A stretch of DNA of 39,670 nucleotides, taken from UHGV virus genome UHGV-0120812. One strand, given 5' to 3'. The DNA comes from a virus. A program made the translations under genes and the position numbers. How positions within the stretch are numbered: the stretch's first letter is position 1; each line of letters starts with the position of its first letter. Shown here one piece after another: positions 15,067 to 39,665 of this stretch. The notes under the pieces were generated by a model. That model worked only from the letters and a program-made list of their open reading frames with translations, did not search any database and had not been told where the DNA came from.

Positions 15067-15233
15067 TTGACCCAAATCGAAGTTACGAACAAGAAAGCGT
15101 CGAGCGGGCTTTAACGTGCGCTAACTGCGGTCAGAAGCTGCATATGCTGGAAGTTCACGTGTGCTCCGATTGCTGCGCAGAGCTGATGAGCGATCCGAAT
15201 AGCTCAATGTACGAGGAAGAAGACGATGAATGA
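15063..15233 (+). CDS. ninF: NinF
   Basis: 56 aa GTG-start hand translation [56 protein letters not shown], resembling lambda NinF; below the ORF-track cutoff. Confidence 0.7.
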
Positions 15234-15951
15234 GTTAATAAATGGCAACGCCATCAAAATGACAAGCATTGAAATCGCTGAGTTGGTAGAAAGCCGCCAT
15301 AGCAATGTAAAAGTATCCATAGATAGATTGGTGAAACGTGGCGTTATCAAGCCTCCTGCATTGCAGCACACTAACATAATCAATGATTTAGGTGTTATTA
15401 CCGGGAAGCGTTATTTCTACGTCTTCGAGGGCGAACAAGGAAAGCGAGACAGCATTATTGTCGTCGCCCAATTGTCGCCAGAGTTCACCGCTCGCCTTGT
15501 TGACCGTTGGCGAGAGCTTGAAGAAGCTGCGGTTAATATCCCAAAAACGCTACCGGAAGCGTTGCGCCTTGCTGCTGATCTTGCTGAGCAGAAAATGCAG
15601 CTGGAAAACCAGCTCGCAATTACCGCACCTAAAGTTGAGTTTGCCGATCGCGTTGGCGAGGCCAGCGGAATTTTGATTGGAAACTTTGCAAAGGTTGTTG
15701 GAATTGGTCCAAACAAACTGTTTGCGTGGATGCGAGATCACAAAATCCTTATTGCTTCAGGTTCCCGGCGAAATGTGCCAATGCAGGAATATATGGATCG
15801 CGGCTATTTCACAGTGAAAGAAACAGCGGTCAACACAAATCACGGAATACAGATATCGTTCACCACAAAAATCACCGGGCGTGGTCAACAGTGGCTGACC
15901 AGAAAGCTGCTCGATAACGGAATGCTGAAAGTAACAGGTGAGGCTGCTTAA
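15226..15951 (+). CDS. Rha-family regulatory protein with KilA-C/ANT antirepressor-like C-terminal domain
   Basis: 241 aa; N-terminal region typical of phage Rha proteins, C-terminal region resembling the antirepressor KilAC domain (from memory). Confidence 0.65.
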   Translation: MNELINGNAIKMTSIEIAELVESRHSNVKVSIDRLVKRGVIKPPALQHTNIINDLGVITGKRYFYVFEGEQGKRDSIIVVAQLSPEFTARLVDRWRELEEAAVNIPKTLPEALRLAADLAEQKMQLENQLAITAPKVEFADRVGEASGILIGNFAKVVGIGPNKLFAWMRDHKILIASGSRRNVPMQEYMDRGYFTVKETAVNTNHGIQISFTTKITGRGQQWLTRKLLDNGMLKVTGEAA

Positions 15952-32473: not shown

Positions 32474-34317
32474 TGAAAGTAACTGCAAACGGTAAGACAT
32501 TTACCTTTCCTGATGGTACGAGCACCGAAGATATTGGCACCGCCATTGATGAGTATTTTGCTGGTCAGGCTGTTCAGCAACAAACAGTTAATCAGGCCAA
32601 TAATGCACCAACACGGGAAGAACCATCATTGATGCAACAAGCTGGCGATTGGCTCACTGGTGGTCAAAGTGCAGGGCAAATTGCGGAACAGGCTGGTCGT
32701 GGTCTGGTAAACATACCATTTGACGTATTGCAGGGCGGCGCAAGTCTGATTAATGCAATCAGCCAGGGGCTTGGTGGCCCCAAGGTTTTGGACGATGTCT
32801 ATCGTCCAGTCGATCGACCAACAGACCCTTATGCGCAAGCTGGAGAAACAATTGGCGGGTATTTAGTTCCAGGAGTTGGAACGGCAGGAAGCATGGCTAT
32901 TGGATCACTGGCAGAGGCCGCAAATCAGAAAGGCGATTTCGCACAAAATGCAGCTAAAAATGCCGGAGTTAACCTTGCCGCTCAGGGGGTTCTTTCCGCA
33001 GCAGCAAAGGGAATATGGCGTGGAATAACGGCTATAAAAGGTGATATTGCGCCAGAAGTGGCGAAGAAAATTGCCACATCAGAATCGATGGGCGTGACAC
33101 CAATGACATCTGATGTTATCCCGCCGAAAAATGCTTTCACTCGCGGCCTAACTCAGGATGCCGAGGGGGCTTTGCTCGGGACAGGCTCAAAGCGAGCGGA
33201 GCAATATGCAACGCGTAGTAAGCTGGTAAGTAATTATTTTGACCGTTTTGGTGAGTACAACCCTGATGATGTGGTGAAATCTCTTACCACCACGTTAAGG
33301 GGGCGGAAGGATGCCGCTGGCGCTGTTATCAATGACGTCACCAATAAAATGGGTAATGCCGCAGTTGATACCACAAATACCATGAATGCTCTGAATACAG
33401 CGATCGCAAGACAGGAACGGCTTGGGACGTCTGCCAATCAAAGCCTGCTTACATCCTTGCGTAACCTACGTGAAGAATTAGCAAACCCTGCAACTGATTT
33501 GGATGTTACGTTTGATCTCTTGCGTCAGCACAGAACAGCATTTAGATCTAATGTTCAGGGAGATGCTATGGTCTTCCCAAACCAGGCAAAAGCAGCTACC
33601 AATATGGTAGAGAATGCAATGTCAAAAGATCTTCGTAACGCAGTTGCAAAAAACCTCGGTGCATCAGACGCAGCAAAATACCTTAAAGCAAATTCCGATT
33701 ATGCAAACGTTTATAATAAGGTGCTTAATAAAAACATTGCTAACAAGCTCAACAAGGCAAGCAGTGAAGCCAGTCCTGAACTTATAAATACCGTTGTATT
33801 AAGCAGAAAACCATCTGACGTGAAACGAATCTGGAGCGCATTGGATAATAAAGGGAAAGATGCTATGCGTGCAGCTTATGTCAGCAAAATAGCGGAAAAG
33901 GCCGGTGACTCTCCAGCCAAGTTCATCACTGAAGTTAATAAGCTGAAATCTCAGTCAGGCGGTGAAATTTACAACACTATTTTTTCTGGAAAGCACATGA
34001 AAGAGCTTGATTCTCTTCATGAAGTTCTACAGCAAACAGCAAGGTCAGACACCGCAAATGTAGTAACTCAGACGGGGCAATCGCAAGCCAACAGGATAAG
34101 GACGATTGGCGCAACTGCGACTCTTGGCGTATCAATGGGGCTTGAGGCTGGTTTCGGTGCAATGATGCGCTTGTATGAGTCAAAAGCAGCAAGGAATGCT
34201 CTCTTACGTTTGGCAAACACCAAAGCAGGAACACCAGCCTATGAAAGAGCGCTAAATAATGCTGCAAATGCGATACGCCCTATACTTTCAAGCCAAATTA
34301 CAGCAGAACAGCAATAA
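32470..34317 (+). CDS. Ejection protein (P22 gp16-like)
   Basis: 615 aa ORF at the gp16 position and of similar length. Confidence 0.8.
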
Positions 34318-34330
34318 AAATAAGATATAA

Positions 34331-34816
34331 CTATCTGATATTACTGCTACTGTTGCATGTTACCGTGTTTCCAAATCCTGAATTGCAGTTTGTATATGTG
34401 TCAACGCGTGTTGGGTAAGGTTGAGTTATAACAGGCTGGCGCGCTTTTTGCTCGATCGCTTGCATTGTGTTTACAGCCTGATAATTCAATAAAGCCTGCT
34501 GGAATGCTTGGCTTTGTGCTATTTGTTGTGCTTGTTCTTGGCTTTGTAATTGAACATAAAGATTCTGAAGTTCAAGTCTTGCCTGTGTGTCACTTATCTT
34601 GCCTTCATCGACACCTTGCCCGAGCATCTTCGCAGCAAGGACATACAGCTTAGGTGTTGGTGCTGATGCCATGCGAGAGTCGTTCTTCAAGCTGGCATCA
34701 AGGCAATTAGCCATATCGCTAAGCTTTGGATAGCGTTGCTCGCAACTTGCCTGATAGTCGCTTACTTTTGCGCACCCAGCCAGCAGAAGCGGGATAATTA
34801 ACAGTGATTTTTTCAT
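34331..34816 (-). CDS. Lipoprotein, accessory gene (candidate superinfection-exclusion or conversion factor)
   Basis: 161 aa from MKKSLLIIPLLLAGC (signal peptide plus LAGC lipobox); Q-rich helical middle; convergent with gp16. Confidence 0.65.
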   Translation of the reverse strand: MKKSLLIIPLLLAGCAKVSDYQASCEQRYPKLSDMANCLDASLKNDSRMASAPTPKLYVLAAKMLGQGVDEGKISDTQARLELQNLYVQLQSQEQAQQIAQSQAFQQALLNYQAVNTMQAIEQKARQPVITQPYPTRVDTYTNCNSGFGNTVTCNSSSNIR

Positions 34817-34850
34817 ATAATTAACTCTCCTTAGTTTTGCGCAGGATACC

Positions 34851-35216
34851 ATGAAAAAAGTTAACATTGGAAACGTACCAAAGATGCTCGTTCCGCTCTT
34901 TGAGAGCGGTACAATTGTGTTTTGTAGAGACTTTCCAGAATGGCAACGCCTGCATCAAAAACTTGGCGTTGACGTGCATGACTCGGACGCCAACGGAGCG
35001 TCTCATACAATGAGTAGCGAGAATGGTGTTTTGCATGTGATAGGCGTGTTCAATGGCAAACTATCTACTATTGCCCATGAGTGCGCTCACATGGCATTCG
35101 ATATCTGCTCAAGGGTAGGTGTTGATGTTGAACCAGGAAGAGCCAACGAGACTTACTGCTACTTAATGAGCAGGCTTGTTGAGTTCTGCGAGCGACATAT
35201 CAAAAAGCCGGAGTGA
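34851..35216 (+). CDS. Hypothetical protein with HExxH motif (possible small zinc metallopeptidase)
   Basis: 121 aa; AHECAHMAFD contains HExxH; divergent from the lipoprotein gene across a 34-bp gap. Confidence 0.55.
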   Translation: MKKVNIGNVPKMLVPLFESGTIVFCRDFPEWQRLHQKLGVDVHDSDANGASHTMSSENGVLHVIGVFNGKLSTIAHECAHMAFDICSRVGVDVEPGRANETYCYLMSRLVEFCERHIKKPE

Positions 35217-35229
35217 CCCGGCTTGATTA

Positions 35230-35409
35230 TTACTTTTTGCTGTCTGGAGTTCGCTTATCCAATACCCAGCCATGACCTGGCTTTGTTGTTGGTGGAAGCC
35301 TTTCGTTGTCCTTGACGGTTGCAAAATTGTCTTTCTTACCGCCGCGTGGGCCAACTTCTTGGTATATTCCGCCGTTTTTTCCTGTGTTTTCACCTGGTTT
35401 TTTCGCCAT
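35230..35409 (-). CDS. Hypothetical small Gly/Lys-rich protein
   Basis: 59 aa MAKKPGENTGKNGGIYQEVGPRGGKKDNFATVKDNERLPPTTKPGHGWVLDKRTPDSKK; GAGGT RBS 7 nt upstream; hairpin plus T-run downstream. Confidence 0.45.
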   Translation of the reverse strand: MAKKPGENTGKNGGIYQEVGPRGGKKDNFATVKDNERLPPTTKPGHGWVLDKRTPDSKK

Positions 35410-35508
35410 GATATACCTCAACATACACCCGTTATTGGGCGATTAAATATTGATCTCATTTTATAAGTAGTCAATATGGCCCAGGTAAATGCAAAAATTA
35501 ACCCACCT

Positions 35509-35760
35509 TCAGGTGGGTTTTTTGTACAAATCCTTCAGCGTATCAAACACCATCTTCTTAACAAGCTCTGACTGCTCATCAGCGATGCGTTCCGCATCGT
35601 CTCGATAGCCTGAAATTTTGGATGGCTTTGATACAGCATCAGTCACTATCTGAACTAATTCTGAATTAAGAGAGCGGCCATTGGATTTGGCTCGCTGTTT
35701 TAGTTTTTCCTTTAATTCGTAAGGTAGCCGCAGATTAAATTGCGGGTCATCTCTTCCCAT
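35509..35760 (-). CDS. mnt: Mnt repressor (ribbon-helix-helix, Arc/MetJ family)
   Basis: 83 aa; DDPQFNLRLPYELKEKLKQRAKSNGRSLNSEL...YRDDAERIADEQSELVKKMVFDTLKDLYKK resembles P22 Mnt. Confidence 0.85.
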   Translation of the reverse strand: MGRDDPQFNLRLPYELKEKLKQRAKSNGRSLNSELVQIVTDAVSKPSKISGYRDDAERIADEQSELVKKMVFDTLKDLYKKPT

Positions 35761-35820
35761 TCTTGATGCCTCGCTTTTGTGAGTGGATCGGCATCTTATT
35801 ATCTGCTGATTGCATCCTCA

Positions 35821-35841
35821 ATAAGACCACGGTGGTCGTAT
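35821..35841. promoter_or_regulatory. Mnt-operator-like palindrome
   Basis: ATAAGACCACGGTGGTCGTAT, a near-perfect 21-bp palindrome with the CACGGTG centre, between mnt and the tailspike gene. Confidence 0.65.
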
Positions 35842-35907
35842 TTTTTTGATTAATAATGCATCACTGCGGCAATGCTGCGGCGATTCCTTGTATCTGGAGC
35901 AAATTAA

Positions 35908-38046
35908 ATGACAGACATTACAGCCAATGTTGTAGTGAGCATGCCTTCGCAACTCTTCACTATGGCGCGTTCTTTTAAAGCCGTAGCTAATGGCAAAATT
36001 TATATCGGTAAAATTGACACTGACCCGGTAAATCCTGATAACCAGATTCAGGTCTATGTTGAGAACGAAGATGGTTCTCACGTTCCTGTTGCACAGCCAA
36101 TCGTCATCAATGCCGCTGGGTATCCAGTATATAACGGACAGATTGCCAAGTTCGTAACTGTGCAAGGCCATTCTATGGCTGTTTATGATGCGTATGGTAC
36201 ACAGCAGTTCTATTTTCCGAATGTGCTGAAGTATGACCCTGATCAACTACGGCAGCAATTAGAAGACCCGGATGGAGCTAAAAAATATCCTGAATTGCAG
36301 ATATCTCGGTGGAGGGACGATTGTGATGTAAGAGGGTGGGGGGCAAAAGGCGATGGTATAACAGATGATACATCTGCATTGATCTTGGCTGCAGAATATG
36401 CACGAGAATCATCCAGAACATTACGAGCGGAAGGTAATTTTATTATTACGGAGACATTAAATCTTCGTAATGTCAGCCTCGAAATGACCAATGCTGTTTT
36501 TACCATATCCCACTCAGGAATAGGGGTATTGCTTGGCGGGAATGCATCAAACCCTAACAACCCAAGACAAAACTTCGGAACGATTATCAGAAATTCTGGT
36601 ATTTCATCTGAAACGACACCGGATATTCGTATTATCGGGGCAAAAGGGCAGCATATAAACATTGAGCGTTGCGACTACTTACAGTTATATGCAAATTATA
36701 ATGCTTCGGTGGCATCGACGGATTATTCAATAGCATACTCAACCTTTAACCTGAAAAAGGTCGATACAATTCATTTTCTTGGAGTTGAGAAAGGATGGAT
36801 AAATGAAAACTATTTTTATCTGAATCGTACGAATAATATCATTTTCGCTGATAATCCATATCATCATAACCACAATAAGTTTTATGGTGGAACTATGGAG
36901 GGGGCAGGTAAAATTGATATTCAAAGAGGTGATAACAATTACTTCTACGGGTTTCGTTTTGAACGATATCCATCATCCCCAACTAACCAACAGTTGATAA
37001 TTAACTTTGGTGAATATACGTGGAATAACTCAATTGAAGCTACATGGCTTTCATCTCCTGCGTATACAAATGAGCCATACAATCCATCGCCTTACACTTA
37101 TGTCGAGGTAACTGATAATGGCAAGGGGAATGCAGTATTTCATATTCAGGAAAATATATCCGATGAAGTAACATTGTTTTCTTTAAATGCTAACACCCCA
37201 TTTATATCCAGTGCTAACAATGGAGAAGTTGGTGCATTAGCATATCAAACAGATGTTGATGGTTTATATAATATCCGTCACCTGGTTTCTTCTAAGTTTG
37301 CTTTTATGCGGAATTTTGGGTTGTTATGGGAATCTGGAGATGTACCAGTAAGAAATGGTGATATGTTTACATTCTCAGCAGATACGGCATCGTTTCGCAT
37401 TTACCTGTATGCATTAGATAGAGATGGGAATGTCATAACCTCACAAACAGAAGCCATAACTTCTTCTATGCAATGGGATTCTGCCAACCATAGGTATGTC
37501 ACTGCTGTTAATATTTCTTCCATTAAGATCAGGATTAATAATGAAGGGGTTCCAGTTAGTGCAATTCGTTTAGCTGTGTATTCTGGTGGTAATGTAGTGA
37601 ATACTGCATTTTCATGGCTATGCTTTACTGGTAGATATTACAAAAATAGCACATCCTTACCAAGGAAAAGTAAAAATACTTTTACTTTAAAACAAGGGAA
37701 AGCACTTACTTATTATAGTGATACTGATATTAGTATGGCTAACATTGGTTCAGGAATTACCTGTTATAAAACCGATTTATCTGAACTCAAAATTAATCTT
37801 GTAAGGGGCAGGTATGTAGTGAAATCGATTTCAGGTAGTGAAATATATGTATACCAAGGAACAATCACTTATTACCCTCCACTCAGTGATATCAAATTGG
37901 TATATACGGATGGGATTGAAAATAAATTATTAGATGTGCAAAGCATCTCTTCAGGAAAGATTACTCTTGCAGATACAGTACCATCAGCTATATCTGCAGG
38001 CGATTTTGTAGATGTTATTGTTACAAAGACGAAATCTATTTTATGA
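35908..38046 (+). CDS. Tailspike: P22-type head-binding domain plus divergent beta-helix-like receptor-binding domain (candidate polysaccharide depolymerase)
   Basis: 712 aa; first ~113 residues [43 protein letters not shown]...NVLKYDPDQ match P22/HK620 tailspike N-termini; remainder unrelated to P22 and AT-rich. Confidence 0.9.
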
Positions 38047-38462: not shown

Positions 38463-39620
38463 TTACTCCACCTTTTCATCAATCCAGTCAGCCCACCACT
38501 GCATCATTTCTCTGCGCTTATCGAGATACTGAGCATGGTTGTAAATTCCGCGCACAGATCCGCCGTTGGCATGTGCCAGTTGCACTTCAATAGCATCAGC
38601 GGGCCATTCGTGCTCGTTCATAATCGTGCTGAATTCATGCCTGAATCCGTGACCGCTTTCCAGACCCTCATAGCCTATTTGTTTGATCACAAGCAATACC
38701 GCGTTCTCGCAGATTGGCTTCTTCTTATCGTTGCGCCCGGCAAAAACAAACTCTGATACTGGTTTGGTGATGGAGCTTAGCGTAGTGAGAAGTTCAATAA
38801 CCTGGTCCGACATCGGAACCACATGAATCTTGCGTCCCTTCATCACATTGGCGTCGATGGTGATAATCCCGTTTTCAAAATCGACGTTCTTCCATAGCAT
38901 GGAACGAAGCTCTTTTGTTCTGAGGGCTGTGTAGCGTAAAACTTTGGTCGCAATGAGCGATACGATACTTCCTGAAAATGTTGCCAGTGCTTTGTTGAAT
39001 GCCGGGATCTGGTCTGCTGGAAGAAACGGGAAGTTCTTCTTGCGGTATCCCTTCATGGCGTCAGCAAGGTCAGGTGCCGGGTTGTATTTAGCCCTTCCGG
39101 TGACAATAGCGTAACGGAAAACTTCGCCGCATCTTCTGCGGGCTTTGTTGGCTCGCTCCATTGCACCGCGATCTTCAAACCTGCGGATTACTTCCAGCAG
39201 TTGCATCGGCTCAATATCCTGAATCTCAAGACCGCCGATGATGGGTAAAATGTCGTCATCAAACATTTTGGCAAGTTCAGTCGCATACCCTACTGACCAT
39301 ACTTGCTTCTTGTGCTCGTACCATTCTTTGTAAATCGCACTAAAGGAATTGTTGTTAGACGAAGCCTTTTTCGCCTTTACCGGATCGATGCCAACCGAGA
39401 TGTCTTTCCTCGCAGTCCATGCCTTATCCCTTGCCTCCTGCAAAGTCATTAGCGGATATTTTCCTACGGTCAGGACTTTCTCCTTACCGTCAATCTTGTA
39501 GCGAAGCTGCCATACCTTTTTCCCTGATACAGGGACATAAAGGTACAGGCCATTACCATCGAGTAGGCGGTATGGTTTTTCTTTCGGCTTAGCTGCTTCA
39601 ATCTGCTTAACGGTGAGCAT
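38463..39620 (-). CDS. intS: Tyrosine integrase, P4 family (N-terminal arm-binding domain)
   Basis: About 385 aa from MLTVKQIEAAKPKEKPYRLLDGNGLYLYV...; C-terminal HGFRHEF and VQLAHANGGSVRGIYNH catalytic motifs; resembles KplE1 IntS as recalled. ORF-track GTG at 39656 is an alternative start. Confidence 0.9.
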   Translation of the reverse strand: MLTVKQIEAAKPKEKPYRLLDGNGLYLYVPVSGKKVWQLRYKIDGKEKVLTVGKYPLMTLQEARDKAWTARKDISVGIDPVKAKKASSNNNSFSAIYKEWYEHKKQVWSVGYATELAKMFDDDILPIIGGLEIQDIEPMQLLEVIRRFEDRGAMERANKARRRCGEVFRYAIVTGRAKYNPAPDLADAMKGYRKKNFPFLPADQIPAFNKALATFSGSIVSLIATKVLRYTALRTKELRSMLWKNVDFENGIITIDANVMKGRKIHVVPMSDQVIELLTTLSSITKPVSEFVFAGRNDKKKPICENAVLLVIKQIGYEGLESGHGFRHEFSTIMNEHEWPADAIEVQLAHANGGSVRGIYNHAQYLDKRREMMQWWADWIDEKVE

Positions 39621-39665
39621 GGGTAAAAATCCGGTGGGTAAAATTATTTTATCCACTTTTTACCC
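39621..39665. promoter_or_regulatory. Clustered GGGTAAAA/TTTTACCC motifs upstream of int (candidate Int/RDF binding sites of the att region)
   Basis: GGGTAAAAA at 39621..39629, GGGTAAAA at 39636..39643, inverted TTTTTACCC at 39657..39665; TTTTACCC recurs at 36..43 and 48..55. Confidence 0.5.

Follow-up and report, generated by a model that had tools for sequence, protein, structure and literature searches.

A lone mnt gene and its predicted operator beside the tailspike gene of a P22-like prophage: a putative self-regulated remainder of immI

The 147 bp that separate mnt from the tailspike gene (35761..35907) in a P22-like (Lederbergvirus) prophage of E. coli are probably the control region of a cut-down immI, i.e., an mnt-only ant moron, which would work as an autonomous, self-regulated cassette and perhaps provide immunity in trans, with the tailspike gene expressed via the late operon. 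The window, the whole stretch of DNA that was analysed, is the 39,670-nucleotide UHGV virus genome UHGV-0120812. As a genome feature this interval is minor, and its interest is functional: whether mnt without its former partners is a relic or has acquired a new job. Conservation favours a working gene and operator over a relic, and natural phages carrying the same operator on an antirepressor operon were identified. The mnt-operator-tailspike arrangement is already described and widespread, not new; what the analysis adds is the purifying selection indicated for mnt, the conservation of the operator half-sites, and the metagenomic full immI loci with the same operator.

Layout of the locus and its relation to P22 immI

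The features of the locus are listed in Table 1. The mnt product has an Arc-like ribbon-helix-helix DNA-binding domain (residues 3-50; Pfam Arc PF03869, 2.8e-22) and the Mnt C-terminal tetramerisation domain (residues 53-80; Pfam Repressor_Mnt PF11423, 2.2e-18). It aligned end to end with the solved P22 Mnt structure 1MNT (2.8e-34) and also matched the P22 Mnt structure 1QEY (3.1e-12). Together with the ORF itself, these matches confirm the mnt gene of the original prediction, and a Head_binding domain (4.5e-67) does the same for the tailspike ORF starting at 35908. The near-perfect 21-bp palindrome claimed between the two genes is present at 35821..35841 and reads ATAAGACCACGGTGGTCGTAT. The claimed absence of arc and ant between mnt and the tailspike gene also held, as tblastn with P22 Arc and Ant matched only mnt itself and the ORFs in 35761..35907 were chance ORFs of 27-40 aa. 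For the arc gene and the Arc operator there was neither an ORF nor similarity to the P22 Oarc region, and ant with its sar antisense RNA and t_ant is absent, P22 14771-16156 having no counterpart by BLAST. An immI-derived mnt and an Mnt-type operator adjoining gene 9, without arc or ant, are what the window contains. The cassette is placed between the gene 16 and gene 9 homologues (34317 / 35908), as in mnt-only ant morons.

Table 1 Features of the mnt-tailspike locus in the window.
Feature	Position	Strand	Details and basis
Gene 16 homologue	end at 34317		ORF list
t_mnt, bidirectional intrinsic terminator	35500..35519		AACCCACCT-tc-AGGTGGGTT, T-runs either side; terminator scan, both strands
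mnt	35509..35760	-	ORF of 83 aa
mnt Shine-Dalgarno	35769..35772	-	GAGG, 8 nt before ATG; read from sequence
Pmnt-like promoter	35793..35821	-	-35 TTGAGG (35821..35816), 17-nt spacer, -10 TAAGAT (35798..35793)
Predicted Mnt operator (Omnt variant)	35821..35841	.	core AAGACCAC-g-GTGGTCgT at 35823..35839, centre 35831
Variable junction filler	35842..35860	+	T-run, TTGATTAATAATGCA; between immI remnant and tailspike module
Tailspike 5' leader	35861..35907	+	7-bp hairpin 35864..35880; Shine-Dalgarno GGAG 35896..35899
Tailspike gene (P22 gene 9 homologue)	35908..38046	+	head-binding N-terminal domain conserved, receptor-binding part divergent
Integrase gene	38463..39656	-

The terminator t_mnt stops the mnt transcript and faces late transcription coming rightward. 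Its RNA fold has a free energy of -13.4 kcal/mol (z -2.8), and the homologous site in HK620 carries the annotation tMNT. Further to the left, at the P22 sieA position, a 178-aa ORF (34331..34867, minus strand) with a lipoprotein-type signal (MKKSLLIIPLLLAGC) and without a Pfam match is unrelated to sieA; similarity to P22 near this position begins only at 34827.

In P22, the mnt-gene 9 region contains the overlapping divergent promoters Pmnt and Pant, an Arc operator between the Pant hexamers and the Mnt operator over the Pant start, and further holds arc, sar, ant and t_ant. By BLAST, window 34827-35760 corresponds to P22 13837-14770 with 92% identity, spanning the hkcC and orf59a homologues, the terminator and mnt, and window 35861-36246 corresponds to P22 16157-16542. 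The alignment with P22 immI that the original prediction proposed for defining the deletion endpoints thus sets 35761-35860 against P22 14771-16156: 100 bp stand in place of 1386 P22 bp with Pant, Oarc, arc, sar, ant and t_ant. Inside these 100 bp, only ...CTCAATA-[A/G]G-[A/T]CCACGGTGG... could be seen by eye to be shared with P22.

The arrangement is not a fresh deletion of a P22-type immI: Pmnt, the operator and the part of mnt for DNA binding are of another specificity class, an old one that phages of E. coli, Salmonella and Klebsiella have conserved. The gene is a mosaic with its junction near 35600-35640: the 3' half, for the tetramerisation domain, is nearly identical to P22 mnt, whereas the 5' half, for the DNA-binding domain, is strongly diverged from P22 and is of the SE1/ST64T class together with Pmnt and the operator. 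The Mnt of ST64T and L combines the same N-terminal domain with a C-terminal part that is unrelated. The DNA-binding domain appears to travel together with promoter and operator as an exchangeable unit.

The junction at 35842..35860 has no P22 counterpart and showed no BLAST similarity to P22. The segment that follows, 35861..35907, aligns to P22 16157..16203 and is the ordinary tailspike leader of P22-like phages. HK620 and CUS-3 have it upstream of their gene 9 although both lack mnt, and in Sf6 the matching part starts just ~15 bp upstream of the ATG. Its 7-bp hairpin (CTGCGGC-AAT-GCTGCGG) is kept upstream of gene 9 with or without mnt and is part of the minimum-energy fold, with 93% of the alignment cells paired and both-side changes at 3 pairs. 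The left arm of this hairpin is missing in a few relatives (L045, L051, L052), and part of its sequence is repeated in P22 just after t_ant.

Elsewhere in the window, the original prediction had pointed to a Rha/KilA-C antirepressor-like gene in the nin region (15226..15951). The KilAC/ANT domain (1.5e-32) and the nin/Q location hold, but the Rha match was below the Pfam cut-off. The gene is roi of HK97/HK022, in a stretch ~97% nucleotide-identical to HK97, and Roi is not an antirepressor of the P22 Ant type.

Promoters, operator and transcription of the tailspike gene

Promoters were sought with a position-weight scan that used our own matrix, with hexamer frequencies after published compilations, so its scores are approximate and apply to sigma-70 only. 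As controls, P22 Pant (15.25), Pmnt (12.97), PL, PR and Plate all ranked at the top in the P22 genome. The strongest candidate in the interval is the leftward site TTGAGG-17-TAAGAT, which scored 9.85 (top 0.003% of window positions) and whose offsets from the operator centre (-10 and -33) are those of P22 Pmnt; its predicted start lies near 35786. A leftward promoter at identical geometry was found in every distinct lone-mnt intergenic sequence, with scores of 9.1-9.85, including that of L172, whose Mnt is only 72% identical. The built-in sigma-70 consensus scan gave no site within 35761..35907 in either orientation.

In the rightward direction, the best score in 35761..35907 was 5.63, a background level (top 0.1%) equalled by hundreds of sites in the window. 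No equivalent of Pant toward the tailspike gene was found in this interval or in ~38 distinct relatives, and no rightward candidate was conserved in position. According to the original prediction, the tailspike gene now adjoins the ancestral Pant/Omnt, and Mnt may directly gate a tailspike promoter. This was not supported: a rightward promoter with the geometry of Pant is absent (best rightward score 5.63, against 15.25 for P22 Pant), and promoter prediction yielded only the leftward Pmnt-like site, here and in the relatives. The sequence therefore speaks against an ancestral Pant now driving the tailspike gene, and a Pant remnant or other operator-overlapping promoter under direct repression by Mnt is quite unlikely. 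In its favour, an operator conserved in cis lies 67 bp upstream of the ATG of the tailspike gene, the Klebsiella phage phiKp_30 keeps the operator DNA beside its tailspike gene without mnt, and there are two weak rightward candidates. One, TTTTGT-16-TATTAT, would have its start (~7 nt past the -10) some 20 bp upstream of the centre of the operator; the other, TCCTCA-18-TATTTT, spans that centre. However, these candidates score 3.8-5.6, a level reached by ~0.1-0.3% of window positions; where P22 has the -35 and -10 of Pant, TCGGCA and TGCATC stand in the window; and a genuine Pant with the same operator looks different (TTGACA-17-CATTAT). HK620, Sf6 and CUS-3, which have neither mnt nor the operator, express the same tailspike leader from the late operon.

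In P22, the tailspike gene is read by antiterminated late transcription. By analogy, the tailspike gene of the window would be read by antiterminated late-operon polymerase that crosses the cassette antisense to mnt. The mnt gene itself would be transcribed leftward from Pmnt, with the transcript ending at the 35500-35519 terminator.

The palindrome consists of two 11-nt arms (35820-35830 and 35832-35842) that are 1 nt apart and 91% complementary, with one mismatch. Its 17-bp core, AAGACCACgGTGGTCgT at 35823..35839, is the sole match in the 39.7-kb window at <=3 mismatches (0.08 expected by chance), so that no second Mnt operator, for example ahead of the roi/KilAC gene, is present in the window at this threshold. 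The operator centre is at about -45 from the predicted Pmnt start, and the core ends 2 bp upstream of the -35. When 38 distinct mnt-tailspike intergenic sequences, all related by descent, were aligned, conservation extended from mnt through the right operator arm, and similarity was lost directly after GTGGTC. The 16 half-site positions are almost invariant across these 38 related sequences, with few singletons, while the central base is G, A, C or T depending on the lineage. Conserved half-sites around a free central base are the pattern expected of a symmetric protein-binding site, and from palindrome and conservation pattern together we infer that an Mnt tetramer binds this operator. Bound at about -45 of the Pmnt start, it would regulate its own synthesis. 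In P22, stimulation of Pmnt by Mnt is reportedly indirect, via repression of Pant; Pant, the route of this supposed effect, is absent in the window.

Between mnt and the operator, the inverted repeat GATGCC-N19-GGCATC was not taken as a feature, because 6-base arms at such a spacing are expected by chance and the predicted transcript start lies between the arms. The operator with its T-run was likewise rejected as an intrinsic terminator: operator stem and junction form a weak hairpin followed by T7 (-6.3 kcal/mol, z -0.65), which is no better than shuffled sequences, and the T-run is not conserved among the subtypes.

The same signals could be read as a roadblock or attenuator, in which operator-bound Mnt, helped in the subtype of the window by the hairpin and T7, would cut the number of rightward polymerases reaching the tailspike gene, whether from the late operon or from stray prophage transcripts, and so tune its dosage or silence it in lysogens. 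The terminator scan flagged GACCACGGTGGTC followed by GTATTTTTTT, the operator, directly at the left edge of the tailspike module, has been conserved in cis, and in P22 the frequency with which late transcripts get as far as the tailspike gene is affected by the ant moron, with Mnt and Arc possibly taking part (Villafane et al., PMC2629481). However, the hairpin is just -6.3 kcal/mol and the T-run is found only in the window subtype, being absent from the Gally and ST64T subtypes, so the sequence argues only weakly for such a mechanism. Antiterminated polymerase (of the lambda Q type) generally ignores such signals, and if this extends to the phage in the window, it also counts against a roadblock, which we consider unlikely. 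Operator-bound Mnt could still have some effect in cis on rightward transcription.

Conservation of the lone mnt cassette

The arrangement occurs in 101 of the 5426 complete E. coli genomes (~2%). Over the mnt-tailspike region, identity is 95% with the phages Gally and vB_EcoP-720R6 and 83% with SE1, ST160 and their relatives; with ST64T, ST104, L, SPN9CC and others it is 79% over the stretch from mnt to the operator. Single BLAST pieces run from mnt to gene 9, and the 38-sequence alignment confirmed that intergenic region and operator are homologous. A scan of species-representative bacterial genomes for CAATAAGACCACNGTGGTC gave 8 matches only, in unrelated taxa and at about chance level.

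We examined 80 viral contigs encoding a relative of the window Mnt. In all of those with an Mnt >=92% identical, the tailspike ATG is 135-148 bp from the mnt ATG, the exceptions being later rearrangements in the tailspike 5' end, and none of them has arc or ant; in the same survey, the P22-type Mnt is always accompanied by ant. The longer mnt-tailspike spacings were considered as a sign of a cargo gene under Mnt control and instead turned out to reflect either AT-rich DNA that replaces the tailspike 5' end or an IS1 inserted in the tailspike gene. The former is seen ~150-430 bp from the mnt ATG in L026, L037, L054-L058, L063, L067 and L072, where the tailspike gene is cut after its first ~13 bases (ATGACAGATATTA...TAG) and is followed by a ~280-bp AT-rich segment and another tailspike start that has an AGGA ribosome-binding site of its own, which looks like the swap of a tailspike module along with its own upstream region. 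In L034, an apparent IS1 (with an InsB-like ORF, recognised by eye) interrupts the tailspike 5' end 200-920 bp from the mnt ATG, in a prophage that is otherwise identical.

The coding sequence of lone mnt is under purifying selection. Comparison of the window copy with that of ST160 gave a dN/dS of 0.09 at a dS of 0.51, all lone mnt ORFs in the fetched loci were intact (91/91; E. coli, Salmonella and more distant hosts), and 25 distinct lone-mnt coding sequences encode only 12 proteins. The same operator is kept in distant lone cassettes, namely L156, with an Mnt 60% identical, and L172 (72%), in which the tailspike N-terminus is 52% identical. Since mnt and operator are both kept by selection, the cassette is likely to be functional.

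These data bear on the view that mnt and operator are decaying, functionless remains of an immI that was deleted. For phage L, in which genetic work found no functional immI (cited in PMC8022706), the option is left open by Zaworski et al. (PMC8022706), and degraded mnt and ant fragments occur in neighbouring morons such as that of HK620. Against it stand the low dN/dS and the ORFs that stayed intact in all the hosts named above, the promoter and operator at exact geometry even where Mnt is just 60-72% identical, and half-sites that stayed conserved though the central base drifted through all four bases. An intact, selected mnt and a conserved operator in distant cassettes make a decaying relic very improbable.

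In phiKp_30 (L006, 3001-3149), the whole mnt-tailspike intergenic region is kept at 87.6% identity, with the operator AAGACCACCGTGGTC, and, from precisely the start codon of mnt onwards, unrelated DNA with an unannotated lipoprotein-like reading frame takes the place of the gene. That operator DNA is kept without mnt hints that this DNA may matter for the tailspike side.

Cognate immI loci, possible role in trans and comparison with known systems

Pattern scans of viral contigs for the operator core returned many chance matches besides real loci. Among the real ones are six IMG/VR contigs of three lineages (L088, L218-L222) with a full immI and the identical operator core AAGACCACGGTGGTC. In these, a strong Pant (TTGACA-17-CATTAT/CATCAT) is overlapped by the core; arc comes next and, in all but one of the six, ant as well, and the arc homologues are 60-64% identical to P22 Arc. 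Their Mnt is ~60% identical to that of the window over the N-terminal domain, while the C-terminus is unrelated; the beta-strand reads RDDPQFNLRM in the full immI contigs, RDDPQFNLRL in the window and RDDPHFNFRM in P22. One of the full-immI contigs comes from metagenome 3300045988, which is also the source of many lone-mnt contigs. A full immI with exactly the operator of the window was found neither among the cultured phages nor in the complete E. coli genomes examined, and the cognate loci are metagenomic. Plausibly, the lone-mnt class descends from a full immI of the same specificity, and since full immI loci with the identical core exist, there are natural targets for trans-repression by lone Mnt.

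The likeliest role of the cassette is a trans-acting secondary immunity: the Mnt made by the prophage would silence Pant-arc-ant in related phages that enter the cell with the same operator, and would in this way shield the lysogen from antirepressor-driven induction. If so, the resident prophage would not be inducible by a foreign Ant. A conceivable further reading, which we put forward only tentatively, is that lone mnt is a stand-alone 'anti-antirepressor' immunity gene against superinfecting phages sharing AAGACCACNGTGGTC, with the diversity of Mnt/operator classes in enterobacterial prophages reflecting an arms race over this secondary immunity. In a weaker variant of this reading, Mnt on the operator would also tune the amount of late transcription arriving at the tailspike gene. 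The conservation of the operator in cis points to some role in cis as well, because an Mnt acting purely in trans would not need an operator there; it is the piece least well explained by immunity in trans, and leaves room for a roadblock.

Operator classes in E. coli prophages include GGTCCAC, AGACCAC, GAACCAC, which CH4794-like prophages have, and TAGTAC. With those of P22 and the window counted in, E. coli and its phages show at least four specificity classes of Mnt, and such a diversity fits selection on phage-phage interactions. Complete mnt-arc-ant loci with the further operators AGTAGTACGGTGCTATCA and TGAACCACGGTGGTTCA were seen in the E. coli prophages L208/L209/L225/L226 and L223/L224; TGAACCACGGTGGTTCA is paired with the Mnt SREDPQFKLRLP, and AGTAGTACGGTGCTATCA with ARNDPQFNVRMP. 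A strict His6/Gln6 operator code was considered, as the GACCAC-type loci all have Gln6 and the GTCCAC-type loci all have His6, yet FREC5-type prophages of E. coli break the rule. Residue 6 alone does not set the specificity, since these prophages combine Gln6 with a quite different operator. In two further contigs (L114, 7690-7760; L117, 8180-8240), the same operator family is represented by three palindromes in tandem (GGACCACCGTGGTCC, AAGACCACGGTGGTCC, AAGACCACCGTGATCC) directly upstream of a longer RHH gene, whose product in L114 has 140 aa and begins MSREDPQFKLRMP, a different and apparently autoregulated use of this operator type.

Compared with P22, the window has a homologous mnt with 76% amino-acid identity and an almost identical 3' half, a Pmnt equally distant from a palindromic operator of the common CCACNGTGG core, and the same place within the late operon. 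It differs in being without Pant, Oarc, arc, sar, ant and t_ant, in its operator half-site, AAGACCAC against AGGTCCAC in P22 (where the operator is AGGTCCACGGTGGACCT), and in Mnt residue 6, which is Gln in the window and His in P22.

The closest known systems are the mnt-only ant morons of ST64T, ST104, L, SE1 and ST160, and of Gally and 720R6, all at the same site between gene 16 and gene 9. The variable region was named 'ant moron' by Villafane et al. 2008 (PMC2629481), who described ST64T, ST104 and Para1 as having only mnt along with a gene whose function is unknown. Zaworski et al. 2020 also describe the arrangement and left it open whether it is a relic in phage L (PMC8022706). Phage L has the same class of Mnt as the window and is historically known to lack immI function; the Dam undermethylation reported for phage L was set aside, as it concerns gtrABC and not mnt. 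The mnt-only morons share their order with the window: a leftward mnt, ~60 bp, the operator AAGACCACNGTGGTC, a short junction, and the tailspike ATG at 135-148 bp. The window is distinguished from the others by its central operator base G, the right-arm mismatch (GTGGTCg) and the T7 run after the operator, by the C-terminal half of its Mnt, which is P22-like whereas ST64T has another, and by the receptor-binding domain of its tailspike.
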